The notes: a model not told the origin generated them from the letters alone. Shown: positions 37,251-63,665, counted from the first letter of the stretch. The stretch is 64,000 nucleotides of DNA from an uncultured virus (IMG/VR IMGVR_UViG_3300025137_000019) (IMGVR_UViG_3300025137_000019), one strand, 5' to 3'. Numbers and translations are program-made.

Positions 37251-37463
37251 ATGGCAAATAAAAAAATGGTAATGGGTCCAGGAGGTAAAATGGTTCCTAG
37301 TTATGCAATGGATGGTAAAGGATCTAATGATCTTGTGGTAAAAAAAGCTAAGCTAGGCATGGCTCAAGAAACAGACATGATGCAATATGGTAAAGGCGGG
37401 GCTAATAAATATGGTAACGGTGGCTATAAGGCAACAAGAAGAAATAAAAACTATCCAAAATAA
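37251..37463 (+). CDS. small basic protein with xxGG motifs
   Basis: YAMDGKG, YGKGG, YGNGG. Confidence 0.7.
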   Translation: MANKKMVMGPGGKMVPSYAMDGKGSNDLVVKKAKLGMAQETDMMQYGKGGANKYGNGGYKATRRNKNYPK

Positions 37464-37468
37464 AAGAT

Positions 37469-37666
37469 ATGGCTTACTATGATAAAATGAGAGATGAAAT
37501 GCTAGGTAAGAGTAGCCCACAAGTTATCATGGAAATGATGAAACATGGTGGAGGCTGTGGTTGTGGCAAAAGAATGCCTAAGTATTCTAACAATCCTAGA
37601 ACTATTCAAGGAAGACAACTTAGAAATGGTGGTTCAATGAAGTGTGGTGGTTATAAAATGAAATAA
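37469..37666 (+). CDS. small basic protein with xxGG motifs
   Basis: MKHGG, LRNGG, MKCGG. Confidence 0.7.
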   Translation: MAYYDKMRDEMLGKSSPQVIMEMMKHGGGCGCGKRMPKYSNNPRTIQGRQLRNGGSMKCGGYKMK

Positions 37667-37667
37667 C

Positions 37668-37859
37668 ATGGCAAATACTACTGATGCAGGAAAGGTTTTA
37701 GCATTTTTCAGAAAAGGAGGATCTAAAAAAAAGAAGAAAAAGACTAAGAGTAAAAAAGACTCTTGTTATTATGCAGCTAAGAAGGCTCATAAGGTTTTTC
37801 CTTCTGCTTATGCTAGTGGTATGATTGCTAAGTGTAGAAAAAGGAAAGCTAGAAAGTAG
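37668..37859 (+). CDS. small Lys-rich protein
   Basis: FRKGG, KD.CY..FPSAYASG..CRK. Confidence 0.7.
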   Translation: MANTTDAGKVLAFFRKGGSKKKKKKTKSKKDSCYYAAKKAHKVFPSAYASGMIAKCRKRKARK

Positions 37860-38131
37860 TGGCAGTTAGAAAAACAAAGAAAGGTGCAGCTCTTAAACGT
37901 TGGTTCAAAGAAAAATGGACTGATGAAAAGGGTAATGTTTGCGGATCTTCTAAGAATAAAAAAACTAAGAAGTGCAGACCTAGTAAAAAGGTAAGTAGTA
38001 AAACCCCTAGAACTTGGGGTTCTATGTCTAAGTCACAAAAGACCAAAGCTGTTGCAGAAAAGAAAAGAGTTGGCATGGGTAAAAGAACCAGTGCTATAAG
38101 AAAAAGAAAAACTACTAAAAAGAAGAAATAA
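37859..38131 (+). CDS. small Lys-rich protein (DUF5872-like)
   Basis: LKRWFKEKW..CG..CRP.K.VS..TP; GTG start overlapping TAG. Confidence 0.7.
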   Translation: MAVRKTKKGAALKRWFKEKWTDEKGNVCGSSKNKKTKKCRPSKKVSSKTPRTWGSMSKSQKTKAVAEKKRVGMGKRTSAIRKRKTTKKKK

Positions 38132-38304
38132 TGGGAGACATGCCAAGCACTTTATATAAAAAAGGTGGAGCTAAGAAGAAGTTTAAAGTACATAAGATGT
38201 ATAAAGGTACTAAAGCTGTAACAGCTAAAACTATGAAAGAACATCTAGCTTTAAAAAAGAAAGGATATAATCATACTAAGCCAAAAGCTAAAAAGAAGAA
38301 GTAA
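38131..38304 (+). CDS. small Lys-rich protein (57 aa, not in track)
   Basis: MGDMPSTLYKKGG..HKMY..EHLALKKKGYNH; TAATG overlaps on both sides. Confidence 0.7.
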   Translation: MGDMPSTLYKKGGAKKKFKVHKMYKGTKAVTAKTMKEHLALKKKGYNHTKPKAKKKK

Positions 38305-38573
38305 TGCCTGCCAAGAAGAGTAAGAAGAAGGGAGCTATGAAAGGCTGTACAATCAAAAGTGGTTGTAAGTCTAAGAAAGGTGGTCTTACTGCTAAGGGTC
38401 GTAAGAGTATTAACCGTAAAACTGGTTCTAATCTTAAAGCACCTCAACCAGGTGGTGGAGCTAGAAAAAGAAGTTACTGTGCAAGATCTAAAGGTCAGAT
38501 GAAAAAGTTTCCTAAAGCTGCTAAAGATCCAAACAGCCGTTTGAGAAAAGCAAGGAGAAGATGGAAATGCTGA
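38304..38573 (+). CDS. small basic protein (DUF6321-like)
   Basis: GGLTAKGR..NLKAP..RKRSYCAR..DPNSR..WKC. Confidence 0.72.
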   Translation: MPAKKSKKKGAMKGCTIKSGCKSKKGGLTAKGRKSINRKTGSNLKAPQPGGGARKRSYCARSKGQMKKFPKAAKDPNSRLRKARRRWKC

Positions 38574-38663
38574 TGATTTTTTTGTATATTAATACATGAG
38601 TAAAACTTTTAAAGACCCAGAAGAACAGAATGATCAAATTTTTATTTACTGGGATTATTAAAG

Positions 38664-38834
38664 ATGGCAAAAAAGAAAGATAAAAAGTGGATGCAGAAGG
38701 CTAGTGCTTCTATTAAAAAAAGAGGTACTAAAGGTAAATGTACACCTATTACAAAAAAGAGTTGTACAGGTAAAGCTAAAACACTTGCTAAGACTTTTAA
38801 AAAGATTGCCGCTAAAAGAAAGAAAAAGAAATAA
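38664..38834 (+). CDS. small Lys-rich protein (56 aa, not in track)
   Basis: MAKKKDKKWMQKA..LAKTFKK; TAATG overlap with the next gene. Confidence 0.7.
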   Translation: MAKKKDKKWMQKASASIKKRGTKGKCTPITKKSCTGKAKTLAKTFKKIAAKRKKKK

Positions 38835-48000: not shown

Positions 48001-48582
48001 ATGAAGGAATTTAAGAAACCAAACGTTAAAGCTCCAAGATTTAGACCATCGTTTTATAATGTTCTAAATAAAGAGTTCTTTGAAAAATTTAAGAAGAAAT
48101 ACCCTAAGTATAAAAACTTAGATAATAGTATATTAAAAAAGATTGTGAAGACATTTAATGAGACTATTTCTAGTAAGGTAATTGAGAATAGAGATGGTAT
48201 AGAGTTACCTCAACAATTAGGGTGGATTTTCATTGGGACTTGTCAAAAGAGTAAAAAACAAAATGTTGATTTTGCTAAGTCTCATAAATATGGAGTAGAG
48301 GTTCAAAATAAAAATTGGGAAACAGATGGTAAGTTAGCAAAGATATTTTTTACAAATTACGCTCCAAAGCATAAAATTAAAAATAGAGAATTTTGGGGAT
48401 TTGTTGCATGTAGAAATTTTAAAAGGACAGTGGCTAAAACTTATCCTGAAAATTGGAATATGTATGTTGTTGTTGATCCTATACAAAAACTAAAAACATC
48501 ATATAGTAAGGAGGTTTATAAAAGAGTAAGGTTGAGAAATACACAAAAGGATCTAAAAAATTATAATGAATTTGACATATGA
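48001..48582 (+). CDS. crAss-like IHF-related protein
   Basis: G..LP..LG.I..VDF..S motif; position before the tail tube genes. Confidence 0.55.
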   Translation: MKEFKKPNVKAPRFRPSFYNVLNKEFFEKFKKKYPKYKNLDNSILKKIVKTFNETISSKVIENRDGIELPQQLGWIFIGTCQKSKKQNVDFAKSHKYGVEVQNKNWETDGKLAKIFFTNYAPKHKIKNREFWGFVACRNFKRTVAKTYPENWNMYVVVDPIQKLKTSYSKEVYKRVRLRNTQKDLKNYNEFDI

Positions 48583-49250
48583 CAACAATTGGTGAATCCA
48601 TATCAAGAGTAAGAAACACACTTAAAGCAGTTAAAGAAGATCCTTTTTTAACTGACAGGGTCATATATTATTCTATAATTAAATATGGAAAAACTCTTTT
48701 AAAGAGAGAAGATAATCAATATAGACTTATGAGAATAGGAACTATATTTTCAGTTTTACCAATGGTTGAACTTATAGATGTAGACAAAGTAGAGGCTGGT
48801 TGTATGGGTGTGTATTCTGGTTGCTATTTTAAAAGAACTAAAGATAAGTTACCAGATATTTTTGATGGGCTATTTGGTCCAATTATACGTACAGTGTCTT
48901 CAATAGATAGTTCAATAGAAGTTTTTAGAACAGATCCAGGGACTTGGACATCTATAACTAAATCATCAACTTTTAAATATAATAAGAGACCATACTTTTG
49001 GTATCTTAATGGTTATTTATATGTTCCTAATGTAGATTGGGATGCTATAAGAATTGAGGCTATTTTTGATGGAGATATATCAGAGTATGTTTGTGATGAA
49101 GATGAGAAGTGTAAAATAAGACAAGATCAAATTTTACCCTTTCCTGAATATTTATTTTCAGAAATAGAACAAATGACTGTAAAAGAATTAACCATGACTA
49201 TGCAAGTTCCTCAAGATAACTTGGATGATGGTCAAAATGCACTTAGATAA
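48579..49250 (+). CDS. tail ring/tubular protein
   Basis: YFW.LNGYLY motif, synteny. Confidence 0.6.
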   Translation: MTTIGESISRVRNTLKAVKEDPFLTDRVIYYSIIKYGKTLLKREDNQYRLMRIGTIFSVLPMVELIDVDKVEAGCMGVYSGCYFKRTKDKLPDIFDGLFGPIIRTVSSIDSSIEVFRTDPGTWTSITKSSTFKYNKRPYFWYLNGYLYVPNVDWDAIRIEAIFDGDISEYVCDEDEKCKIRQDQILPFPEYLFSEIEQMTVKELTMTMQVPQDNLDDGQNALR

Positions 49251-50284
49251 TGGATTTTAATTACACACTTAAATATAGAACTTTTGATCAACTCTTAGAA
49301 GATGTATCTATTGATTTAAATACGTTTGCTTTAGAGAATATGATAGAGCCTCAACAACTTATAAAGTTGGCCAGAAGGTTAAACTATGAATTAGGATTAA
49401 GGATAAATCAAACTAAAGAAGCTGTATTAGAAGTTAATCATGGTAAAGTAAAATTACCAGATGATTTTTATGTCTGGAATTATGCCATGGTTTGTGGTAA
49501 TTATCAACAGGCTGTTGGTTATGATGGTTATGCTAGTGGTACTAATATGCAAGAGATGCCTATTACAGGTAGTGAAGTTCCTGTAAGCTATAGTGATTTT
49601 CCTGCACAGGTGCCAGATCCATGTGACCTAAATGAGCCAACGCCTTGTTGTGATGATAAAGGAAACTTAGGTCAGTGTCTTACTAATAATCCTAATCAAC
49701 CATATGGAGATGCAAATATAAAACCTAGAGTGTTTTTAAATTGTAAGGATGAAGCTTATGAATTAGTACAAGTTATAAATTCAAGTAATATTAGAAGTTA
49801 CACACAGCTTACTCCATTGCGTATGAAGAAGAGTCAGTCAATAGATTGTGATTGTCCTAACCTATATAATAATTCACCAAATGAAGGTTGGTTAAAAAAT
49901 GGATTTTTATTTACAACATTTAAAACAGGAAATGTTTATTTAAACTACCAAGGAGAAATGGTGGATGATGATGGTAACCTAATGGTTCCAGATCATGAGC
50001 TTTTAAATGAATACTATGAGTATGCATTAAAGAAAAGAATTTTAGAGAATCTAGCAATGAATGGGGAGAATGTAGGTCAAAGATTACAATTAATAATGGG
50101 TGAACTTAGAGCAGCAAGAAACCAAGCATTGAGTCTTGTAAATACTCCAAACTTTGCTGAGATAAAACAAATTTGGGTTACCAATAGAAAGGCACAGTAT
50201 GCAAGGTATTATGATATGTTTTCTTCACATTTACCAGCTAATTCATTTCCTTATAACCCACGTAGCGGAAGAGTAGTTTCTTAA
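49250..50284 (+). CDS. tail tubular protein (P22 gp4-like)
   Basis: LP.DF..F.TG.V.LNY..DDDG..MVPD..EY. Confidence 0.65.
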   Translation: MDFNYTLKYRTFDQLLEDVSIDLNTFALENMIEPQQLIKLARRLNYELGLRINQTKEAVLEVNHGKVKLPDDFYVWNYAMVCGNYQQAVGYDGYASGTNMQEMPITGSEVPVSYSDFPAQVPDPCDLNEPTPCCDDKGNLGQCLTNNPNQPYGDANIKPRVFLNCKDEAYELVQVINSSNIRSYTQLTPLRMKKSQSIDCDCPNLYNNSPNEGWLKNGFLFTTFKTGNVYLNYQGEMVDDDGNLMVPDHELLNEYYEYALKKRILENLAMNGENVGQRLQLIMGELRAARNQALSLVNTPNFAEIKQIWVTNRKAQYARYYDMFSSHLPANSFPYNPRSGRVVS

Positions 50285-50296
50285 TAAGAAAATGAT

Positions 50297-53200
50297 ATGG
50301 CAAGAAAAGGACAAAAAAAAGGATTAAAAAATGTTTCTAAAGACGTTACAAATACTTTTGTCAAAGGGTTAAATAAAGATGCTGAACCTTCTTATGTTAC
50401 AAGTGGTATGTGGACGCATGCAATTAATGCTACAAACAGCACTGTTGAAGGTGATTTAGGAACTATATCTAATGAGTCTTCAAATTATTTATGTGGTGTG
50501 TCTGGAGTATCTATGCCAATTACAGCAACAGATAAAGTTATTATAGGAACAATTTATTTATATTCTGATAAATGGGTTATATATACAGCAGGGCATGATT
50601 CTTCAGGAAATCCTGTTACATCTGAGATAGGCTTATTTGAAACTGATACTTGTACATATAGAGAAATTGTACAGGATACATGTCTAAAATTTGATAAGAG
50701 ATATTTAATATCAGGTGCATCTAGAGAGATGGAAGATTGTACTTGGCAAGTATATTGGTCTGATGGTCTTAATCCAGATAGAGTTTTAAATATAGGTGAT
50801 AATGCTAAGTGGCCTGACTCTAGCTATCAATGGTTGGGTAATGGCCCTGCTACAATGAATTATTATAGTAACGGTATTGTAGATAATTTATTATGGCCAG
50901 GAGTAAAATGGCAGCAAGATATTGATAGCGGCTCAACAACTGCAGAACCATGTGAAACATATGAAGATTTAAATAAACTAGATTGTCCAAAAATTAGACT
51001 TGCAAGATTATTAGAAACACCTTGTTTAAATTTAGAGCTGGGTCAGCAAGGAGGTAGTTTATCAAACGGTACTTATTTTGCAATAATTGCATATACAATA
51101 AAAGGTCAAAGAGTTACTGATTATTTTTCTCAAAGTAATAATCAAATAATTTATACTCCTCAAGATGAACAGGGATCTTTAACATTACAAATTGAAGCTG
51201 ATAAAGAAAATTTTGATGAGTTTGTTTTAGTATTAGTTCAAAATGTAAATCAAGGCACAGTTGCAAAACAAATAGGGTTTTATTCAACTAGTGTAGAAAG
51301 AATATCAATTGATATTATTAATATAAGTTTAGCAACTATTCCTTTAGAAACTCTTCCAGTTCAAACTCCCATTTTTGAAACATCTGATCAAATTACCAGT
51401 GCTAATAATTATCTATTAAGAATTGCACCTAAAAGTAAATTTAATTTTAACTATCAACCTTTAGCAAATCAAATTAAAGCTCAGTGGGCTTCTGTAGAAT
51501 ATCCTGGAGATTATTACATGAAAGGTAATGATAAAACAAATTATCTAAGAGATGAGGTTTATACTTTTTATATAAGATGGGTATATGATACAGGAGATAA
51601 GTCATCTTCTTATCACATACCTGGTAGAGCACCAAGAGAAGTAACCTATAAAGATTTTAATGGAGCCACACAAACTACATTTGAAACTGATCTTTTTCAG
51701 GTTGAAAACGCCTTGGCTACAGATGATAAAGTTTTTGAAGTAATTAATACAGCAAGTCTTGTTAATGGTCCTTTGACAGGTACAACAACAGATGATGGAG
51801 GTACAGTTATTGCAACGGGTGATATGGGATATTGGCAATCTACAGAAGAATACCCTGATGATAGACCTGACATTTGGAATCCTAGTCAATATTGCTGGAC
51901 TGGTCAATCTGCACAAATACCAGCAGGATCAGACCCTGCAGTTACTAAAGGTATTTTTGATCTATGTGGTGAAAAGATTAGACATCATAAGATGCCTGAG
52001 AACTTTTTAAATAATAATCCTACAGATTCATTAGTTCATTTTAAACCTCAAGCAAACTCTGCTAACCAAGGTGCTGATTTTGCAATAAGGCTATTAGGTG
52101 TATTTTTTGAAAATATTATTTTACCCAAAGATCAAGATGGTAATGATATAGAAGGAATTGTAGGATATGAAATATTAAGGGGTTCAAGAGAAGGAAATAA
52201 AAGTATTATTGCTAAAGGTATGGTCAATAACTTTAGAACTTTTAAACAAAGTGGTTCTGCTAATCAAGCAATAACTGGTTTATATGCTAACTATCCTTTT
52301 AATTGTATTAGACCTTTAGGTTCTTCAAATAATTCAAGTGATCATGATTTTGGATTTAATGATCCATATATAAAAAATGAAGACATTTCAGGTAATGTTG
52401 CAAATCAAAATATACCAACAGATATATTTTCATTTCATTCTCCAGATACAACTATGAGAAATCCCTACTTAAGTTCTTCAGAATTTAAGTTATATGGTCA
52501 TTTGTCTGGATTTAGTGATCAACAATTTATTGAACCAAACGGTCATCCAAAAGTAAAATTACTTGCTGGAGCTGCTCTTATACCAATGTTTTTAGGAGGT
52601 ATAACATCAGCTATCATATCATTTCTTGGTAAGAAAACTCAAACGGGTCTTAATTATACTACAGGTTCTTTACCACCAGATCTTATTGGGGTTTCTTCTG
52701 CTGCATATTTAAGTGCAGCAGGTGCTATGCAGTTACCTATAAATGCATATAATCTTTTTATGGCTCAATATTATTCTTCAGGGAACGCATTAGTAGATGC
52801 TGCAATATCAATTGGTGCAGGATATGGTCCTACATTTGCTAGTGTTGCTGATCAAACATTTATGACCGCTGCAAATCTTTCAAGTCTTGGAGGTTATAGT
52901 TCTCCTGTTACATTACAACAAAGTATAGAATTTGGTGACTGGGCATACTTAGATCCTATTAGTAGAATTCTTGGTGCTGCTAATCAATCGCTATTTTATT
53001 TTGCAGAAGGTGCTGATACTGCTTTAGCACTATTATATGCAATGTCTCCATTTAGGCAATTTGCTTTACAACAAGTTTCTTATGGTTTTTACTCAAATAT
53101 GGTTAAGCCTAATTATAATGATTTATATAGATTTACTCTTGAAGATGGTTTTTATATAAAAGATAATGTTCAAGAGGTTCCAACTTATCAAGATAATACT

Positions 53201-55741
53201 GGTTCTCAAATCTCATATAGGATTAATAATTTAAAAAGACCTGATACAGTTGTATTAAGAACTAAGTCTGGACCTACTTTCAATGCCGTGTATCCCAATG
53301 GTGTAACAGCTGGTCCAAAACTATTAGATGCTGCAGACTCTTCTTTAACCACATTAGGAAAAGTTGTTCAAAATAGCAATAGTCCTTATTTACAACCAGG
53401 TAAATTACCAACATTTGAATCTACAGCTAGTCCATTTAGTTTACCAATTGCTAGTCATTATGGTGGAATTAAATCTAGATTAAGAAATCAATATGGTCAG
53501 CTTGGATCAGTTTATCAAATAGTAGTTACTCCTTGTGAGCAAAAATTATCTGACTATGATATATTACCTTTATCATATCAGTGTCCAGTTGATAATTCAA
53601 ATATAAATTATAAACTTTTACAAAGAACTAATCTTATTTTTGGTGGTGATACATACATTAATAGGTATACTGAAAAGAATAGTATGTTGTTTTTCTTTGA
53701 CTGGTTATTTAAACAGCCTGATGGTTTTGAGTATAATTATTTCTTAAGAAATATGATACCTAATGCTAGGTTTGCTATGAATAGTGTCAGATATGATTCT
53801 GGAGATCTTTCATCATTATTTAATATAGATAGTATTGGGGATCCTGGTACTGGGGCTAGTCCTGCTGCATTTTATAATTTAGACTATAAAGTAGGAAATA
53901 GTAATAGACTGTATGATTATAGTGATGATACTAAACAAGGTTTTCCAGATAAAGAAAAAGGTGTATTTTCAGTTAAACAAGCATTCTTCTATTTATCAAA
54001 CTCAGGAATAAAAGATTACTTTGTTGAGAGTGACGTTGTAGTAGACTTTAGACAACAAGCTTTAGAAGTAAAGAATAAACATTATGATCCATATAGGTAT
54101 ACAGATTATAAAGCAATGTTTGATCAAGATCCAAATATTATTGGTGAACAAAGTGGTGCTTTATATGACTATTCTTTGAGCTCTTCTAAATTATATAATC
54201 AATATTTTTCTCAAGGTTCATTACAAAGTAAATATTATAATCCAAATGCTGCCGAGTTATGTTATACATATTACCCAGATAGGTTAATCTATTCCTTACC
54301 TACACAAGATGAGTCTGTAAAAGATAGCTGGTATATATATTTAATAAATAATTATAAAGCATTTAAGAGTGAAATTAATTCTGTCAAGTCAATAAATGAC
54401 AGTGGTATATTTATTACATTCAAAAATGAAAGTCCTATGATGTATCAGGGTGTTGATACATTACAGACTGATGCTGGTACAAAAATCACAATTGGTGATG
54501 GTGGCTTATTTAGTCAACCAACACAAAATGTTTCTGCATCAGATAGGTCATTTGAATATGGGTCTTGTCAAAGTAGACTGTCTATAATAAACACTCCTGT
54601 TGGACTTTACTATATGTCACAAGATCAAGGTAAGATCTTTGCATATGGTGGCGGCCTTACTGAAATTACAAATTCAGGTATGAAATGGTGGTTTATATTA
54701 TTCATGCCTTATAAGTTAACAGAAGATTTTCCAGATTATCCTTATCAAGATAATCCAGTATGTGGTATCGGTTGTCAATCTATCTATGATAACTCAAGTA
54801 ACTTACTTTACTTTTGTAAGAAGGATTACTATTTAAGAGATAAGTATAAGGGTAGAGTTACATATATCCCATTAGGAGAAAAAAATGGTGACTCATTTAT
54901 GCTTGATGAAAATGTAAATTCTGTATTTAAATTAGGTGACCCACTTTTATTTGAAGATGCTTCTTGGACTGTAAGTTATGATCCAAAAAGTAAGTTCTTT
55001 ATTAGCTTTCATGACTGGCATCCTGATTTAAATTTACCTACTAAAGACTATTTTCAGTCAACTAAAAAGAATGGCCTTTGGAGACATAATTATTTATGTA
55101 ATAGTTATTGTAATTATTATGGAGAACAACATGGCTTTGAAGTAGAAATACCTTCTATTACTGGTCAGAATGTAGTTACCTTAAGATCTCTCACATATAT
55201 CTTAGAGTGCTATAGAAGAAATGGTAATAATTGTGTAGATCAACATCATGTTTTAGATTATAACTTTGATCAAGCTGTTATATATAATTCTGAACAAGTT
55301 TCAGGATACCTTAACCTTAACATATATCCAAAGAATAATATTACAGAGTCTTTAAAATATCCAAAGGTATCTGGTACACTTAACTCATATGATATTTTAG
55401 TATCTAAAGAAGAACAAAAATATAGGTTTAATCAATTTTGGGATATAACCAGAGATAGAGCTGAATTTCCTATAGGTTCAGATTACCCTCCAACTGGACA
55501 AACAATTCCTGGTACAACTATTCTACAAGGTAATTATGAATCTAGAAATACATGGGTAACACCACAAAATGGTTATAAGAGAGTTCTAAATGCAGCTAAC
55601 TTAGATTATTCTAAACCTCAGTTACAACAAAAGAAATTTAGACATTATACAAATTTTGTAACTTTAACAAGAAATGAATGCAATGATATAAATATGATTT
55701 TAAAAATCATTAATACTAAGAATCAATTATCACAAAGGTAA
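50297..55741 (+). CDS. tail stabilization/muzzle protein (P22 gp10-like)
   Basis: 1814 aa; F.KGLNKD, YWSDG.NP.R, YLRDEVY, FGGDTYI, SWTVSY..SFHDW motifs of crAss Tstab. Confidence 0.75.
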   Translation: MARKGQKKGLKNVSKDVTNTFVKGLNKDAEPSYVTSGMWTHAINATNSTVEGDLGTISNESSNYLCGVSGVSMPITATDKVIIGTIYLYSDKWVIYTAGHDSSGNPVTSEIGLFETDTCTYREIVQDTCLKFDKRYLISGASREMEDCTWQVYWSDGLNPDRVLNIGDNAKWPDSSYQWLGNGPATMNYYSNGIVDNLLWPGVKWQQDIDSGSTTAEPCETYEDLNKLDCPKIRLARLLETPCLNLELGQQGGSLSNGTYFAIIAYTIKGQRVTDYFSQSNNQIIYTPQDEQGSLTLQIEADKENFDEFVLVLVQNVNQGTVAKQIGFYSTSVERISIDIINISLATIPLETLPVQTPIFETSDQITSANNYLLRIAPKSKFNFNYQPLANQIKAQWASVEYPGDYYMKGNDKTNYLRDEVYTFYIRWVYDTGDKSSSYHIPGRAPREVTYKDFNGATQTTFETDLFQVENALATDDKVFEVINTASLVNGPLTGTTTDDGGTVIATGDMGYWQSTEEYPDDRPDIWNPSQYCWTGQSAQIPAGSDPAVTKGIFDLCGEKIRHHKMPENFLNNNPTDSLVHFKPQANSANQGADFAIRLLGVFFENIILPKDQDGNDIEGIVGYEILRGSREGNKSIIAKGMVNNFRTFKQSGSANQAITGLYANYPFNCIRPLGSSNNSSDHDFGFNDPYIKNEDISGNVANQNIPTDIFSFHSPDTTMRNPYLSSSEFKLYGHLSGFSDQQFIEPNGHPKVKLLAGAALIPMFLGGITSAIISFLGKKTQTGLNYTTGSLPPDLIGVSSAAYLSAAGAMQLPINAYNLFMAQYYSSGNALVDAAISIGAGYGPTFASVADQTFMTAANLSSLGGYSSPVTLQQSIEFGDWAYLDPISRILGAANQSLFYFAEGADTALALLYAMSPFRQFALQQVSYGFYSNMVKPNYNDLYRFTLEDGFYIKDNVQEVPTYQDNTGSQISYRINNLKRPDTVVLRTKSGPTFNAVYPNGVTAGPKLLDAADSSLTTLGKVVQNSNSPYLQPGKLPTFESTASPFSLPIASHYGGIKSRLRNQYGQLGSVYQIVVTPCEQKLSDYDILPLSYQCPVDNSNINYKLLQRTNLIFGGDTYINRYTEKNSMLFFFDWLFKQPDGFEYNYFLRNMIPNARFAMNSVRYDSGDLSSLFNIDSIGDPGTGASPAAFYNLDYKVGNSNRLYDYSDDTKQGFPDKEKGVFSVKQAFFYLSNSGIKDYFVESDVVVDFRQQALEVKNKHYDPYRYTDYKAMFDQDPNIIGEQSGALYDYSLSSSKLYNQYFSQGSLQSKYYNPNAAELCYTYYPDRLIYSLPTQDESVKDSWYIYLINNYKAFKSEINSVKSINDSGIFITFKNESPMMYQGVDTLQTDAGTKITIGDGGLFSQPTQNVSASDRSFEYGSCQSRLSIINTPVGLYYMSQDQGKIFAYGGGLTEITNSGMKWWFILFMPYKLTEDFPDYPYQDNPVCGIGCQSIYDNSSNLLYFCKKDYYLRDKYKGRVTYIPLGEKNGDSFMLDENVNSVFKLGDPLLFEDASWTVSYDPKSKFFISFHDWHPDLNLPTKDYFQSTKKNGLWRHNYLCNSYCNYYGEQHGFEVEIPSITGQNVVTLRSLTYILECYRRNGNNCVDQHHVLDYNFDQAVIYNSEQVSGYLNLNIYPKNNITESLKYPKVSGTLNSYDILVSKEEQKYRFNQFWDITRDRAEFPIGSDYPPTGQTIPGTTILQGNYESRNTWVTPQNGYKRVLNAANLDYSKPQLQQKKFRHYTNFVTLTRNECNDINMILKIINTKNQLSQR

Positions 55742-58700
55742 TGAGCTATAAAATAAAAAATTCTAAAATTGAAGGTAAGGGAGCTTTTGCTAATAAAGCT
55801 TATAAAAAGGGTGATCAAATTTCTGATGAGTCAGATTATGCTAATGAGGCAAATCAATCATTACTCTCATTCTTTCATAATCATGATGAAAAGAATGCAA
55901 ACATGAACTATGTAATTGGTGATGGTGTGGTTAATATGATTGCAAGTAAAGATATTAAAGTTGGTGATGAGCTAGTGTCAAATTACTATGACATGCAGTA
56001 TCCAGGAAGTCCATATGAAGATCCTAGTGAATTTGAAAAGAAGAAGAAAACTTTAGGTAAAAGAAAAAGAAAGCTTAAAGAAGGTGGTCCACATGATCCT
56101 CCTGAGAAGTCTAAAAGTTTAGATGAAGTTACTGTAACAGGTTCTAGAAAAGATCCTCCTAATAAGTATTATGATAAGAATGGTAATTTAATTAAGGATA
56201 TACCAAGCTATGGTACAATATATACTTCAGATCCAAATGATCCAAAAATTCAAGAGTTTAAAGATAGATTAGATCTTTATAATTTATCTAAAAAAAATTA
56301 TTTAGATACGCGAAGAGGTGAACTTGACAGTCATATAAAAGGGATGAGAGATACTATAGATTATTGGTATAGTATAAATGAACCTCAAGAAGCTAAAGAA
56401 CCAGAAGAGATACTAGAAAAATTAATTCAAGACAGAAAGAATATTAGTAGTAAAGATTATTTGAGTCATTATAGAAATCAAAAAGGAGGATATGATGTAA
56501 GTGAAACTGATTTATTTGATGATATTCTTTCAGGAAATTTTGATGAATATAAAGACTATGGTAAGATGCTTCCTGATGACATGGGTAATTATACTCAAAA
56601 AGAATTAGATAAAATTGCGGGTTTGTACTATTCTGTTGGATTAGATCAAAAGCAGGCAGATATTTTAAAACAAGGTTTAAAATTAGGTTATAAGCCATAT
56701 GTTGATCATATATATGATGGCGGAGTGACAATAGACTATCCTTACCCATCTCTTACAGTAAGATATGCTAATCCTGAAAAATATGATTGGGCAAAACCAG
56801 TTGAAGAAAAACCTGAAATACAAATAGATAGGTTACCTATTATAGAACCTTCATTTATATCTAATCCAGTTACAGGAGAGATAATAACTCCTGAAGAAGA
56901 TTTTAATAATGACTATAAAGCTAAACGTGTAGTAGATAAAGAAACACACTATAAAGTAAATAAGAAGGGTAAGTTTAGAAGAGGTCCGTTTGGTAAAAAA
57001 ACTACACGGTCAGTGAGATATGAAATGCCTGAAGAAGAACAAATATATCCAGAAGGTTTTGTTGCAAGATTTAAACACGGTGGTCCTACTGAGGATGAGT
57101 TATCATATTTTGTAGATGATGCAGGTAAACCTTTTAAATATAAAGGTAAGACCTGGAGTGATATAGCAAAGTTATCTGATGAAGAACAAGGTGATTATAT
57201 ACAAGCTTTTAGTAATTACGAAAAATTAAAAGGTAAAAGAGACTATGAATCAAATAGAAAAAGTAAACTTGATCCATTTTATAAATTAGATCCATATGGA
57301 TATGGTAAAACAACATATGGTACTAAAGATGATTGGGAGGCTAAGTATGACTTTAATAAAATGTCTAACAATATTAAAACACTTTACAAAGAACAATTTC
57401 CTGATGAAAAATTACCTAAAGTAGAAACACTATCTGACTTTAACAAGGCTTCAAAAAAACTAGGAATGAATGTTTATTTTGTAGATGAAGGTGATGGTGC
57501 ATTTAGTATCACTGAAAGTCAAGATATTGCAAGTAGAATTTATAATAATGGACTAACTGCAACTCAACTTTCTAAAATGGGATTGGGAAGTAAACAAGAA
57601 ATTCAAGATTATTTTGCACCTACATTTACACAAGCACAACAAGTTTATGACAAACGTAATTTAGAAAATATAACAAAAGATATTCTAGCTGGTGTTTCAG
57701 TAAAAGATGCTATTCAAAAAATTGCAGATAAAAATCAAGGAACAGTAGAAGGCCTTACTAAATTATATGAAACCTCAAGTGTAGATGCACAAAATAAGCT
57801 AATTAAAAGATTAGAAAAATATTATAGTGGGTCTAATAAAGAAGGTTTTTTTGGTTCTGATTATGATGAAAAGAGCAAAAATTTCAAAGATGAAAACCTT
57901 GGTAAAATGGAAGGTATTTTTGAAGAAATGAGAACTGGTAAGTTTAATCCTAATGCTACAATGGAGGATGCTATGAATTATTATTCAGCAAGTACTGCAT
58001 TAGATGAAGCTAAAGATCCTTTAAAAAAATTTACTGAAGAAGTAAAAAATAAAGATTTGTCTAACGAAGAAAAGATAAAACTTTATAATAATCTATTTAA
58101 AGAATTTGATAAAGATCAACAAAAAAAAGCACAAGAAGCATTTTTTATGAAGCAGAGGGGTAGCTTTAAAAGTGATGAGGAAATGACTCAGCATTTAGAA
58201 GCCCAAGATGATATTACTAATCCTTATAGAAAGGCATCTACATTTACAAAACTTTTACATCCTATTGATGCACTTGGTCATTTATCTAAATATGGTAATA
58301 CAGATCGTATGATGGAAACAAATCCATCAGCTGGGATTTGGAAAGATAATCTTGTAATGCAAGCTTTAGATGGTGCATCATATCTTGCTCCTGGTTTAGG
58401 TCAAGTAAGAGCTGCTCAACTTCTTGGTGATGCTGGTAAAGGTTTTTTTGATTACGGATCTCAGTGGGTTAAAGATGGAGAAGCTCCAGATATGTCATAT
58501 TTAGCTGCACCTGTATTACAAGGTACGTTTGGAGCTCTTGGTGCACGTACGGGTTTAAATTCTCTTAAACCTTATAAAAATATATTTAAACCAAATTCAC
58601 AAACATTTCTTGCTAGACCTAGTATGACAGGTACTAAAGCAATTAACTTACCAGGGAATAGACAAATATCATATGGTAATCCTTTTAAAATTGAAGGGAA

Positions 58701-60288
58701 TACTTTAACTAAATTAAATAATGAACAATTATTAAAAGGTCAACAGTTTATAGATGATGCTTTTGCTGCAGAAAAAAATGCCTTTAATATAATGGACTTT
58801 AACAAAAAGCGTAATGTTATAGGTTCACTTGCAACATCTCCATTAAGTTTTACAGGAACTTGGGATGCAATGTTAGGAACAGGTTCACAACCAAAATATA
58901 GAGCAGCAGCAACATCATTTGAAAAAACAGGAGGTGTAATAAAACTACCTAAGAATAAAAAATTACCTAAGCATAATATGCGTGGCATAGTAAAAAATCT
59001 TGCTAAGTATTACCCTGATATGGAAGTAGCTGGTTCAAGTTTACTCACCCCAGACTATGTAAAACGTATACAAGATATAGCTAAGCTAAAGTCATTCTTA
59101 ACTTATGCTAGTAATATAGATAAAAGTCTTGGTAAGAATAGAGAAATATTAAATTATAATATTGGTAAGCAGATTGTTGACGGAAATATAAATCTTGAAG
59201 ATGTAGCTGATTCTTCTTCATCTTTATTTGATTATGATATAGATCCGCGTCATAAGGCAAGAGATGTTATTAATCAGGAAGGAGTTGAAAGTCTATTACA
59301 AAAAATACTTAGATCAACTGAACAAAAAGATTTTTCTCAAAGTAAACCTTTTGGTGACATAGAGAGAAGTGCCTATTCACGTCAGCTTTCAAACCAAAGA
59401 TATGATCATGAAAAAACAATGTTAGATTTGTACCGTGATCCAAATTATAATCCTGCCGCATTACCTATGGAATCATTAGGAAATGGTTATGATTTTACAC
59501 CAGATAGAGATTTTAATCAACAGTATTTTGACTTAATTAATTTTGATTATGATATAGCTAATCCTTTTGGTGATAATTCTAAAGGTCTTGGTACTATAAG
59601 AGATGCGCTGCCTGTATTTTATGCAAAAAACTTTGAAAATGCAAGACAAACAGCAACATATGGAATGGAGAGCATAAATAAAGCATTACACAGTGCTAGA
59701 CCTAGAACATTTTTAACAGATGCTGGATCTAAAACACCAGATTCATATTTAATGGGTGCAAATCAATTAATAAAAAGTATGAATACTTATCCTGAAATTT
59801 TAGGTAATACTCAATTTATAGGATATAGTAGTTTAAATAAAGAGGCTTTTAGTGACGCATTTTTTAAAGGTAAAGAAAAAGCAATAAATAGAGGTGAACT
59901 CAGAGGTCCTTATACAGGAGCTCCTAGAGCTGTTGCTGATAGTAATTTAGAATTTTTTAATAGACTAAGAGGTGACTATACCTCAAATGCATTAGATAAA
60001 ATTTATGCCAAATATAATTTTGAAGGGTTACCTGCTATAAGGTTACCATTATCTACTAAGATGACCAGTGATATAGCAGGTAGAAATAGAGGTTTAGGTA
60101 CTGATTATAGTTATAAACCAGGTACAACATACTTTCCAAGTTATGCTGTTCAAAAACTCAGACCAATGAGTTTAGAAGAAGCATTAAAAATTAAATTTGA
60201 AGATGGTGGTTATTCTTTAGGAGATGAGGTAGATGAAGCTACTATGAAAGAATTAAAGAAATTAGGTTATACACTTGAAGAAGCTTAA
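55741..60288 (+). CDS. giant modular cargo/ejection protein with N-terminal SET domain
   Basis: S.IEGKGAFA..NH..N..A.KDI..GDEL..NY in aa 1-85; xxGG linkers. Confidence 0.7.
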   Translation: MSYKIKNSKIEGKGAFANKAYKKGDQISDESDYANEANQSLLSFFHNHDEKNANMNYVIGDGVVNMIASKDIKVGDELVSNYYDMQYPGSPYEDPSEFEKKKKTLGKRKRKLKEGGPHDPPEKSKSLDEVTVTGSRKDPPNKYYDKNGNLIKDIPSYGTIYTSDPNDPKIQEFKDRLDLYNLSKKNYLDTRRGELDSHIKGMRDTIDYWYSINEPQEAKEPEEILEKLIQDRKNISSKDYLSHYRNQKGGYDVSETDLFDDILSGNFDEYKDYGKMLPDDMGNYTQKELDKIAGLYYSVGLDQKQADILKQGLKLGYKPYVDHIYDGGVTIDYPYPSLTVRYANPEKYDWAKPVEEKPEIQIDRLPIIEPSFISNPVTGEIITPEEDFNNDYKAKRVVDKETHYKVNKKGKFRRGPFGKKTTRSVRYEMPEEEQIYPEGFVARFKHGGPTEDELSYFVDDAGKPFKYKGKTWSDIAKLSDEEQGDYIQAFSNYEKLKGKRDYESNRKSKLDPFYKLDPYGYGKTTYGTKDDWEAKYDFNKMSNNIKTLYKEQFPDEKLPKVETLSDFNKASKKLGMNVYFVDEGDGAFSITESQDIASRIYNNGLTATQLSKMGLGSKQEIQDYFAPTFTQAQQVYDKRNLENITKDILAGVSVKDAIQKIADKNQGTVEGLTKLYETSSVDAQNKLIKRLEKYYSGSNKEGFFGSDYDEKSKNFKDENLGKMEGIFEEMRTGKFNPNATMEDAMNYYSASTALDEAKDPLKKFTEEVKNKDLSNEEKIKLYNNLFKEFDKDQQKKAQEAFFMKQRGSFKSDEEMTQHLEAQDDITNPYRKASTFTKLLHPIDALGHLSKYGNTDRMMETNPSAGIWKDNLVMQALDGASYLAPGLGQVRAAQLLGDAGKGFFDYGSQWVKDGEAPDMSYLAAPVLQGTFGALGARTGLNSLKPYKNIFKPNSQTFLARPSMTGTKAINLPGNRQISYGNPFKIEGNTLTKLNNEQLLKGQQFIDDAFAAEKNAFNIMDFNKKRNVIGSLATSPLSFTGTWDAMLGTGSQPKYRAAATSFEKTGGVIKLPKNKKLPKHNMRGIVKNLAKYYPDMEVAGSSLLTPDYVKRIQDIAKLKSFLTYASNIDKSLGKNREILNYNIGKQIVDGNINLEDVADSSSSLFDYDIDPRHKARDVINQEGVESLLQKILRSTEQKDFSQSKPFGDIERSAYSRQLSNQRYDHEKTMLDLYRDPNYNPAALPMESLGNGYDFTPDRDFNQQYFDLINFDYDIANPFGDNSKGLGTIRDALPVFYAKNFENARQTATYGMESINKALHSARPRTFLTDAGSKTPDSYLMGANQLIKSMNTYPEILGNTQFIGYSSLNKEAFSDAFFKGKEKAINRGELRGPYTGAPRAVADSNLEFFNRLRGDYTSNALDKIYAKYNFEGLPAIRLPLSTKMTSDIAGRNRGLGTDYSYKPGTTYFPSYAVQKLRPMSLEEALKIKFEDGGYSLGDEVDEATMKELKKLGYTLEEA

Positions 60289-60290
60289 TT

Positions 60291-63200
60291 ATGAAAAAAT
60301 ATAAAATAACATCATTACCAAAAAAACGTTCAGGAGGACAATATAATAGACGTGTACTTAATGATCTAGATAGATTCTTAATGGATCCTTATAGTTCTAA
60401 AAAATATAGCAAAAGTCTGGCAGCCACTAATAGTGTGTTTGCTGTAAATGATTTATTTAAAAAACCTGCTAGAAGTAGAATATATAATCCTAACGCTAGA
60501 TACTTACAAGAAGGAGGAGAGTTGCCAAAAGCAATGTTTGGAAAAGGTCTTGGAAAATTTTTTAGAAAAAATAATATTCAAGGAAGTGTTGGTTTTGGTA
60601 ACACAGCACCTCACTTAAATAATTATGTACCTAAAGTAGGAGTTAATACAATTATGGGCAAGCCAAGAAAAGGCTTTTTAGATCTAGGTTTAACTGCTGG
60701 TGGAGATAAGAAGGGATTTGCTGGAAACTTAGATGCTACTTACTATGGTCCTTTTATGGGTGGTAATAGACATTTTCAAGCATTGATTGATTCAGATACA
60801 TATTATGATCAAGGTACTGTAGGTTCATCTATATCAGGAGGTGGTAATTGGATAGGTGGTAGTAGAAATATTGGAAACAAAAGAAAAGATGGTTTAAGAA
60901 AAGGTGATTGGACAACAGAAGGGGGTATTGGCTTACAGATAGGTGCTTTTAAAGATCTTAATGCTGATCCTGTATCATACTATGAAGAACAAAATACTTC
61001 ATCAAATGCGGGAGCACCTGTACTAAAATATAAGCCTGCACCTATAGGTATAGATTTTGGACCTAAAGCACATTTTAGATTTCAGAAAGCATTTGGTAAT
61101 AATCTAACATTAGATGCCAAGGCTTCAATAGTAGCAGACCTAGTAAGAAATTCTGTTGAAGGTGCTGCAAAAGGTAATCAAGCTGAATATGTAAATGAAT
61201 ATGCAATTAACCCAGATGCACCTAATTATACAAATAGCAATCAAACAATTCAAACTGGTGATAGTATTTTAGCTAATGAGGCTGTAGAAACAAAATTTAG
61301 ACCTGACTTTAAACCATCCGCTGAGGTTAAGTTAACATATAACATTCCTACTGGTGGTAGTCTATTTGGAGGTAGAAAAAAAGGTAAAACACCTGATGAA
61401 TTAGATGAAGAAATATCAGTAAAAGAAAGAAAACCTAAACCTGAAAAAGAGATTAAACCTAAAAAAGAAACTAAACCTGTAGAGGTTGATGAATGGGCAA
61501 GACATCCTAGATGGTTACAAGATGGTGGAGAACTACCTAAACATAACTTGAGAGGTATAGTTAAGGGTAGTAAAAAAGCAGCAAATTATTTTCTTGATAA
61601 TGTACTAGCTACAGCTGAACTAACAGGTAATTTAGCTATGTTAAAAGTACGTAATCCTTTTGAAATGGTGCCAATAACACGGCTTCAAAAAATTAAAATG
61701 GACAATATCCAAAGAGATGCTGTAAAACAAGGAGATAGTTTTGTAAAAAACTGGACATATCCAAAAGGTGTAACTAAAGATATGGATGCATCTGTCCAAA
61801 GAAAAATAGAAAATATATTTAAAGATTATCATAATTATCCAGTTGATGATCCCAATTTTACAGACTGGGCAAATAAGTATGGCATGCAAACTAATTTTGG
61901 TGAATCTAATCCTTTTCAGATACAAGGTGAACCACTATTATTAGGTCAAGATATTGCTACTAGTAAAGGTGCACAAAAGTATTTTAATATGTATGATGAT
62001 TTTGATCCAATACGGAATCAAGATGTGGTTGATTATTTATCAAATCCAAGTAAGTACCGTGGAGTTCATGGTGTAAATTTTTGGAGCGGTCCAAGTGTTA
62101 CCACTAAAGGTATGGGTTTTTATAGAAGGGATCCTGAAGAGATAGCACTTACTAGTGCTCATGAAGCTGCTCACACTATGCAAAAATTAGATCATACATT
62201 TCCTAATTGGAAATACCCTTTTGATTGGAGACAAATACTTCAAGGTGATGATAGTAGTTTGAGCAAAAGATTTAAAGATGCATTAGTTAAACCAGGTAAA
62301 GATTGGGGTTCACATAAATCTTGGCTAAGCAGACCTGAAGAACTTCATGCTGACCTTACGATGAATAGATTTAAAGCATTTCAACAGTTAAGAAGATCAA
62401 AAGATTGGGCTAATCATACTGATGAAGAAATATTAGATGCTATGAAAGATCCTAACATCAGTGATGAATTAATGGAATTTATTTATAGCGTAGGTGCTAA
62501 ACCTAATGTTTTATTAAATAACAGACTTGGTTCGCATTTTAAAAGATCAACACCTCTTAAAGAAAGACTTGATCTATTAAAACTTTTACCAGGATTAGCT
62601 ACACCATTTGTACTACCTGGTCTTATGGATGATAATAAACCTAAATTACAAGATGGTGGAGAACTTCCTAAACATAATATAAGAGGTATAGTTAAAACTG
62701 GTAAAAACCTTGTAAATGAAGTAGCTATAGGTAATACAATGTTTCCAGGATGGAGATCACCAGTAGGTGCGACATTACACCATAATGAATTATTAAAAAA
62801 CTTAGGTAGAAAAGGAACATTTAGCCAGTTTAATAATATATCTCAAACAGATTTAAACCCTTTGACTGAAACACTTTTAACAGATTATGCACAAAACTCT
62901 GGCCCGTATAAGATGAGGTCTAGCACTGAAGGTACTATAGGTGATGGTACAGTAAATTGGGCAGAACCTAATCCTTCAGCTCCATGGCAAACACCACAGG
63001 TTTTTGATCCAGAAAGAAAAAAATTATTTCAAGAACAAATACAAGATAAACTTAGAGAAATAAATGTTCCAGAAGAAACTCTTTTTACAAGAGTAGTGGA
63101 TCGTAGAGATCCTAATCTTTTAAATATTGACAATGGTGTAATAAGAGTAGGTGATAATCTTAATTCATTTACAGTAGGTCCTGCTAGTAATATAATTTCA

Positions 63201-63665
63201 GGTGGGGCTAATACAGATAGGTTTGTTTTAACTGGTAAAAATTTAAAAGGTTATGAGGATAGTTTTTTAAAAAATACATATCCTACAGTAACTTCAGAAC
63301 ATGCAGAAATAGCAAAAAAGAGTTTATTTCCAATTGTTAATCAAGGATTTAATTCAGGTAGTATTGAAGAGGTTAATAGAATAATGAACCAATTAAAAAA
63401 AGAAAGAGAAGCAATATTTACAGGATCAGATCTTAAGATTAAACATAAAGTTAAAAATGATAGAGGTGGTATTGATTACATAGTACGTCCAGTACCTTTA
63501 GGTTATACAACTCCGCAGTATGAAAGATTACTTAAAAATCCATATCTTTATAAAGGTATGGGTATTGGTGTAGGAGGGTTGATGTTAGGCTCTGATGATG
63601 ATAAAAAGAAAATAGGTGGGGTAATTAAGATAAGAAAGAGTAAACTTAACAAGTTTAAACATTAA
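60291..63665 (+). CDS. modular cargo protein: beta-strand module, zincin (HExxH), ART-like module
   Basis: AHEAAH..EELHA; R..S..ERE; LQ(D/E)GGELPK repeats. Confidence 0.65.
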   Translation: MKKYKITSLPKKRSGGQYNRRVLNDLDRFLMDPYSSKKYSKSLAATNSVFAVNDLFKKPARSRIYNPNARYLQEGGELPKAMFGKGLGKFFRKNNIQGSVGFGNTAPHLNNYVPKVGVNTIMGKPRKGFLDLGLTAGGDKKGFAGNLDATYYGPFMGGNRHFQALIDSDTYYDQGTVGSSISGGGNWIGGSRNIGNKRKDGLRKGDWTTEGGIGLQIGAFKDLNADPVSYYEEQNTSSNAGAPVLKYKPAPIGIDFGPKAHFRFQKAFGNNLTLDAKASIVADLVRNSVEGAAKGNQAEYVNEYAINPDAPNYTNSNQTIQTGDSILANEAVETKFRPDFKPSAEVKLTYNIPTGGSLFGGRKKGKTPDELDEEISVKERKPKPEKEIKPKKETKPVEVDEWARHPRWLQDGGELPKHNLRGIVKGSKKAANYFLDNVLATAELTGNLAMLKVRNPFEMVPITRLQKIKMDNIQRDAVKQGDSFVKNWTYPKGVTKDMDASVQRKIENIFKDYHNYPVDDPNFTDWANKYGMQTNFGESNPFQIQGEPLLLGQDIATSKGAQKYFNMYDDFDPIRNQDVVDYLSNPSKYRGVHGVNFWSGPSVTTKGMGFYRRDPEEIALTSAHEAAHTMQKLDHTFPNWKYPFDWRQILQGDDSSLSKRFKDALVKPGKDWGSHKSWLSRPEELHADLTMNRFKAFQQLRRSKDWANHTDEEILDAMKDPNISDELMEFIYSVGAKPNVLLNNRLGSHFKRSTPLKERLDLLKLLPGLATPFVLPGLMDDNKPKLQDGGELPKHNIRGIVKTGKNLVNEVAIGNTMFPGWRSPVGATLHHNELLKNLGRKGTFSQFNNISQTDLNPLTETLLTDYAQNSGPYKMRSSTEGTIGDGTVNWAEPNPSAPWQTPQVFDPERKKLFQEQIQDKLREINVPEETLFTRVVDRRDPNLLNIDNGVIRVGDNLNSFTVGPASNIISGGANTDRFVLTGKNLKGYEDSFLKNTYPTVTSEHAEIAKKSLFPIVNQGFNSGSIEEVNRIMNQLKKEREAIFTGSDLKIKHKVKNDRGGIDYIVRPVPLGYTTPQYERLLKNPYLYKGMGIGVGGLMLGSDDDKKKIGGVIKIRKSKLNKFKH
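61515..62695 (+). repeat. 50-bp direct repeat encoding LQDGGELPKHNxRGIVK
   Basis: 61515-61564 vs 62646-62695 match at 46/50; partial copies at 58963-58995 and 60504-60530. Confidence 0.9.

Follow-up and report, generated by a model that had tools for sequence, protein, structure and literature searches.

A minimal SET domain as an accessory cassette of a predicted cargo protein in uncultured crAss-like phages

In SET-domain proteins the GxG and NH motifs bind the cofactor, the i-SET region together with the post-SET region forms the peptide groove, and the last tyrosine of the ELxF/YDY motif is catalytic (PMC6054832). Known members include vSET of PBCV-1 (A612L; PDB 1n3j, 3kma), a small chlorovirus H3K27 methyltransferase, and BurB (PDB 9l4t), a SET-fold methionine S-methyltransferase acting on free methionine (PMC12542666). 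Among phages, crAss001 has, after the muzzle (gp44), two cargo proteins, gp45 and gp46, and then three RNA polymerase proteins, all of them present in virions (PMC10172136), polyvalent proteins combine unrelated swappable enzyme modules in a single late-gene polypeptide that is presumed to undergo injection and processing (PMC5512222), and T4 Alt, an enzyme cleaved by gp21, is ejected and modifies the host (PMC9026906). Here we describe a SET domain at the N-terminus of a 1515-amino-acid (aa) protein encoded in a 64,000-nt stretch of DNA (further, the window) from an uncultured virus (IMGVR_UViG_3300025137_000019), a marine crAss-like phage. The gene occupies the position of crAss001 gp45, the protein consists of modules separated by Gly-Gly seams, and the SET domain with its tail behaves as an accessory cassette.

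A SET domain without the i-SET

The gene (55741..60288, plus strand, as all features below) is the first one after the muzzle gene (the cargo-1 position), and its product is built of swappable modules and ends with an acidic tag. Residues 1–82 (55741..55986) form a minimal SET core, recognized by Pfam, motifs and an AlphaFold2 model, with the i-SET deleted and replaced by a short hairpin. All hallmarks quoted in the original prediction are present: the GxG motif IEGKGAFA (aa 10–17, 55768–55791), the NH pseudoknot motif HNHDEKNAN (aa 46–54, 55876–55902) and the EL..Y motif GDELVSNYY (aa 75–83), with Tyr82 in the catalytic position (55984–55986). The core is followed by a short post-SET segment (aa 83–98, 55987..56034; YEDP, LEQP in most relatives) with conserved E93 and P95, which probably caps the active site. 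Further come a basic Lys/Arg linker (aa 99–111, 56035..56073) and the LKEGG seam (aa 112–116, 56074..56088), both as predicted; the latter is the end of the cassette, the point of module swap and a candidate cleavage site. The feature thus starts at 55741, as had been proposed, but does not end at 56000, since the module reaches the Gly-Gly at 56088.

The proposed comparison with Pfam assigns the first 115 aa to PF00856 (26.9 bits, E 6.7e-6, with the cut-off of 22.4), while the score of the whole protein, 20.2, is slightly below the cut-off. In the AlphaFold2 model, the predicted local distance difference test (pLDDT) score is 75–96 per block at aa 1–80 and less than 50 from aa 86, compared to 73 and 60 for the post-SET segment in the model of a family member. 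Only SET or PR domains are seen among the listed Foldseek matches to the PDB, and VIA-align of the model yields Z 11.8 for EZH2 (root-mean-square deviation, rmsd, 2.0, 83 residues aligned), 11.6 for MLL1 and 10.9 for SETD8, so the predicted SET fold is upheld. PCNA and retroviral integrase, matched in the PDB with a single sequence (E at least 0.035), were judged to be chance hits.

The cassette shares the fold, the SAM-site (S-adenosylmethionine, SAM) motifs and the catalytic Tyr with EZH2, MLL1 and SETD8, but is devoid of the i-SET of about 31 residues, the EYxG Tyr, the Phe/Tyr of the switch position, the pre-SET and the Cys post-SET. It resembles vSET, the solved protein that a family member matches best in sequence (E 3.5e-5), in being a small viral SET with GxG, NH and EI..Y motifs and no Phe/Tyr at the switch; in contrast to vSET, it is about 19 residues shorter at the i-SET, is embedded in a long modular bacteriophage protein, and faces a host without a histone target. 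BurB is likewise a compact prokaryotic SET (Z 8.8, rmsd 2.7, 78 aligned) but is only 17% identical, is a stand-alone metabolic enzyme, and shows no sign of a shared pathway context. Hence, this is a real member of the SET fold that by its anatomy is not a canonical lysine methyltransferase. Judging by the sequence, a protein-lysine methyltransferase is plausible; a stronger claim is precluded by the missing i-SET wall of the peptide groove and by the fact that a SET enzyme, BurB, methylates free methionine.

For the analysis of conservation, 38 dereplicated SET modules, 19–46% identical to that of the window, were aligned. Residues S8, G14, F16, N47, H48, E77 and Y82 are invariant (38/38), and G12 is retained in 34/38; in the window's protein, the other positions of the NHS/CxxPN motif are degenerate. 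The post-SET E93 is found in 36 and P95 in 37 of the 38 modules, and most relatives (35–36/38) have Gly-x-x-His at the EYxG site. The switch position, Phe/Tyr in ELxF/YDY, is occupied by Ser80 here, and among the 38 modules by Thr in 30, Ser in six, Ile in one and Ala in one; this does not exclude activity, as the active vSET has Ile there.

The SET cassette is under purifying selection in both the family and the sister group. Fifty-nine unique DNA copies provided 19 non-overlapping pairs, one of them saturated and one derived from a single record; in 18 non-overlapping pairs the median ratio of nonsynonymous to synonymous substitution rates (dN/dS) is 0.078, and the maximum, 0.22. In the seven sister-group loci dN/dS is about 0.05–0.25.

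Exchange of the cassette at Gly-Gly seams

The mini-SET is a stand-alone accessory cassette, at whose LKEGG end the neighbouring modules are exchanged between strains. Two closest relatives match the window's protein at aa 1–116, about 441–692 and 1060–1515, and differ between these blocks. In P0052 and P0053 the cassette is 79–86% identical, while the next module has been replaced, and the homology of P0053 stops at aa 116, that is, at the end of LKEGG. At the DNA level, contigs of two marine runs cease to match at 56088 and 56087 and match again from 57079 on, these points being in the Gly codons of two seams (one of these two contigs, among the pieces listed, has just 30 further bases). A 3-kb stretch is present, with 10 differences, in a single contig of one more marine run, which may be the source sample and does not constitute independent support.

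A phmmer search for relatives yielded 49 matches, of which 30 have at least 500 residues, one of the 30 being spurious; P0040, a repeat-rich match without a SET, was dropped. Most long relatives are strings of segments split by xxGG, with the SET being N-terminal, middle or C-terminal, and sometimes present twice. The partner modules include SLT, LysM, amidase, lysozyme, YkuD and a weak match to GNAT; several of the 17 SET-locus cargo proteins scanned have SLT, lysozyme, amidase or LysM. Such architecture, with homology blocks broken at seams and the SET combined with varied partners, is that of the polyvalent type, although, in contrast to polyvalent proteins, no zincin protease motif has been identified in the window's 1515-aa protein. 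In P0006, P0008, P0011 and P0012 two different mini-SET subtypes stand in tandem within each protein, which suggests different targets.

The basic linker is found only in the closest relatives and is absent from the main family; in the sister group, an acidic tag takes its place. In L173–L179 of this group, the tag directly after the SET is the one with which these cargo proteins also terminate, as though a formerly independent gene had been incorporated along with its tag.

The best 80 of 92 loci from the SET alignment comprise 28 crAss-like loci, 41 loci with the SET in a DHH-like protein, ten other loci and one unparsed. Of the 28 crAss-like loci, 27 encode the SET in the gene immediately following that of the muzzle, and the remaining one, in the second gene; in the sister group it is always the first post-muzzle gene (7/7). 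One 118-kb IMG/VR record carries two muzzle–SET loci (L048 and L055) at its opposite ends, with the SETs 92% identical, and may be a chimeric assembly.

When loci were selected by ring protein 2 (the best 80 of 461, with patterns derived from SET-positive loci), the post-muzzle gene had a SET in 20 of 65 scorable loci, or 15 of 43 after dereplication. Among the 50 longest related records 17 have the SET, as do three of the 12 near-complete ones. Given 20/65 loci and 17/50 records, the SET is common but optional in the clade. The carriers belong to an abundant group of aquatic phages, and about a third of its sampled genomes have the cassette.

A protein-lysine methyltransferase in a phage cargo protein had been called unusual, a statement that holds only in part, given the frequency of the SET in the clade. 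A literature search revealed no study on phage SET domains, subscription papers and supplements being outside its scope. In two survey papers, PMC7824862 and PMC7886860, the main text nowhere contains "SET domain", though their supplements might list SET annotations, and the covered passages of the polyvalent-protein paper (PMC5512222) mention none; a "C2-set" match in the crAss literature (PMC10172136) refers to immunoglobulin domains. A tblastn search of annotated phage records yielded only two weak matches (E 0.2) and no cultured carrier. Still, SET domains in phages are not new, as databases already auto-label them in uncultured phages.

Seam motifs in two lineages, possible mechanism and alternatives

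In the record of the window's genome (G002), the block extends as far as a gene for 3300 aa that bears the DFDID motif, so that the SET gene is located between the muzzle gene and the DFDID-bearing RNA polymerase gene, the place of cargo protein 1 in crAss001 (PMC10172136). The window's protein differs from gp45 in having no sequence match to it, no strongly hydrophobic segment (the best 19-residue hydropathy is 0.88), and a Gly-Gly modular structure. From this gene position, the wall hydrolases of its relatives and T4-type motifs of a second lineage we infer that the 1515-aa protein is packed into the particle and ejected, as the original prediction had suggested. The crAss-like affinity points to a host that is probably from Bacteroidota (PMC7886860).

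The second lineage is formed by DHH-fused SET copies, which lie in fragments of large phages. T4 gp21 cleaves after L/I-X-E, and a short N-terminal propeptide targets internal proteins (PMC9026906). In all 12 dereplicated DHH-type proteins we observe [LI]xE[SG]G near the N-terminus, resembling a capsid-targeting leader, and the capsid protein of a 229-kb jumbo record starts with an L-x-E-S motif. A strict L/I-x-E precedes the SET in nine and follows it in eight of 12 DHH-type copies (background 17% and 13%, respectively), compared to 0/7 and 1/15 in crAss copies; a wider motif, defined post hoc on the same data, gives 12/12 and 10/12. Conversely, 14 of 15 crAss copies, but only one of the 12 DHH-type ones, have xxGG after the SET, against a background of 9% and 5%. 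In some jumbo loci (L047, L060) the SET is encoded by a small gene of its own, with the same leader, and the module following the SET in jumbo copies is also found in some crAss copies. The strongest argument at hand for a packaged, separately released unit is that the cassette is flanked in each lineage by the motif typical of that lineage, and the swapping of seams indirectly supports cleavage at the crAss Gly-Gly seams, as far as sequences can tell. The lineage-specific seams thus provide a concrete comparative argument on whether Gly-Gly motifs of crAss cargo are cut.

Jumbo copies nest among the crAss ones in the tree, but crAss copies forming a clade of their own are not rejected by the approximately unbiased (AU) test (p 0.31, 102 columns), and therefore we do not claim a donor lineage. 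The copies in L039:8429-10645, L050:8564-10648, L067 (G018) and their relatives combine a DHH-like protein (weak PF01368) that has the leader with the SET cassette and one more small module; jumbo-phage DHH enzymes have been proposed to degrade nucleotide signals (PMC7824862). In a non-crAss phage (L022:1870-3210, also L023 and L024), the cassette follows a nucleotidyltransferase-like protein, with V-x-E-S before it and the crAss-type Gly-Gly tail kept; this copy, 91% identical to that of the crAss locus L099, is probably a recent transfer.

Our tentative reading, to which we assign somewhat less than an even chance, is that the cassette is a mini-SET methyltransferase that is ejected, released and acts on a host protein. 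The protein, packed into the head or tail, would be ejected before the DNA, and the 116-residue cassette would be freed at LKEGG, just as a gp21-type protease would free the jumbo copies at L/I-x-E. The small domain might then refold in the host cytoplasm, bind host SAM, and methylate an amine early in infection, most likely an exposed lysine on a folded host protein; the latter would fit the loss of the i-SET, since the active site left open by it needs no extended peptide. The role could be early host take-over or counter-defence, as with T4 Alt, albeit with methylation instead of ADP-ribosylation (PMC9026906), and the advantage could be strain-specific. If true, host take-over by injected enzymes, known from the Alt-type ADP-ribosylation, would gain a new chemistry with a lysine methyltransferase, and a SET of roughly 85 residues without the i-SET, shorter than vSET, would test the minimal catalytic unit of the fold. 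A more ambitious version, in which the injected stripped-down SET methylates a host lysine and the cassette has moved between crAss and T4-like jumbo phages with its borders rewritten from xxGG to L/I-x-E, proving that the Gly-Gly seams are protease sites, seems doubtful.

A number of observations weigh against ejection, release and methylation of a host protein. In the family profile there is a 31-residue gap relative to MLL1, spanning the i-SET, and the spacing between the second Gly of GxG and the Asn of NH is 33 here and 29–43 in 38 relatives, compared to 64 in MLL1 and 52 in vSET. The Tyr of EYxG, which plays a role in the lysine channel, is absent in the alignment with MLL1. The window's branch is long and devoid of the Gly28/His31 pair of the family; no DNA was found for the three closest relatives of the window's protein, and the dN/dS estimates exclude its own branch. 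No match to the crAss001 cargo proteins was obtained by phmmer (PDB chains) or in Pfam and PHROG. The 229-kb record is the only one among 25 non-crAss records, mostly short fragments, to have both the gp21-type protease (PF03420) and the gp23 capsid protein, and no such protease was found in six crAss records searched. Since the 15 jumbo copies fall into a single supported clade, they amount to roughly one event, and the contrast is overstated by the Fisher p-values. Finally, exchange points between strains coincide with seams, so that seam conservation may be explained without cleavage, the seams being points of DNA exchange as well.

The concentration of conserved SET residues mainly at the cofactor site and the loss of the i-SET and the EYxG Tyr would also suit a module that binds SAM, S-adenosylhomocysteine (SAH) or methyl-lysine without useful catalysis, that is, an ejected decoy, sensor or adaptor binding a SAM-dependent component of host defence or the cofactor. 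We consider it rather unlikely, as the tyrosine in the catalytic position is invariant in 38/38 modules and the post-SET motif is conserved, and as about 12 copies per virion (the crAss001 gp45 figure) presumably could not deplete cellular SAM. Another unlikely possibility is an active methyltransferase with a non-lysine substrate, such as a small molecule, an N-terminal amine, His, or a cell-wall amine at entry. BurB, a compact SET acting on free Met (PMC12542666), matches the model over a similarly short span, most of the family (35/38) shows a conserved His of its own next to the site, and wall hydrolases are frequent partner modules. However, BurB ranks below the protein-lysine SETs in the fold comparison, the nearest solved sequence relative is a lysine methyltransferase, vSET, and a few injected copies would be better matched to a protein target than to a pool of metabolites.

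Action during assembly or in the particle, where the SET would methylate basic proteins of the phage (from genes at 37.2–38.8 kb, or its own linker) and tune DNA binding or ejection, seems improbable, although small Lys-rich genes exist and a Lys/Arg linker follows the SET in cis. The original prediction had proposed the Lys-rich proteins as substrates alongside host ones, but they do not track the SET: DUF6321 is present in 14/17 SET-positive and 27/33 SET-negative records (p 1.0), and DUF5872, in 7/17 and 11/33, respectively (p 0.76), the records being partly incomplete, while a complete SET-positive genome (G034) has neither, and the basic linker does not characterize the family. Least of all do we expect a decaying passenger, with the function lost in the window's branch and the SET retained as a mere N-terminal leader. 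It could account for the length of the branch and the loss of Gly28/His31, but all seven invariant residues are kept here, the cassette is highly similar to those of P0052 and P0053 despite replacement of the adjacent module, and the sister group is under purifying selection.

Genomic context

Family search identifies in the window a head–tail block of a crAss-like phage, comprising the major capsid protein (PF23898), portal, terminase, ring proteins and muzzle. The tail ring protein genes R2 and R1 (PF25702 and PF24228) occupy 48579..50284 and are followed by the Crassvirus muzzle protein gene (50297..55741; PF25731, E 9.9e-27), whose stop overlaps the ATG of the 1515-aa open reading frame by one base. 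The Gly-Gly pairs of the 1515-aa protein are at aa 115–116, 447–448, 1064–1065 and 1489–1490, the further seams thus being at 57079–57084, 58930–58935 and 60205–60210. Neither the SET nor the whole protein belongs to a family in PHROGs, NCBIfam or PADLOC. Downstream lies a second putative cargo gene (60291..63665), encoding a Gly-Gly-punctuated protein of 1124 aa with no family in Pfam, PHROG, NCBIfam or PADLOC.

A stretch resembling a TonB box is located at 56119–56139 (aa 127–133), past the first seam, and is also seen in the sister-group proteins P0005, L173, L176 and L178; as a feature of the family it was rejected, the pattern being present in one of 65 post-muzzle proteins. HExxH motifs are found in the RNA polymerase gene (L005:3191-13093, G002), in the next gene and in the 1124-aa gene, whose products are candidate seam metalloproteases. 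In a phage of another type, a small gene combining cupin-like and mini-SET domains (L088:326-1063) is adjacent to a head–tail connector gene. Finally, seven tiny Lys/Arg-rich genes, DUF5872 and DUF6321 among them, form a row at 37251–38834 of the window, and several of them have xxGG motifs resembling the cargo seams.

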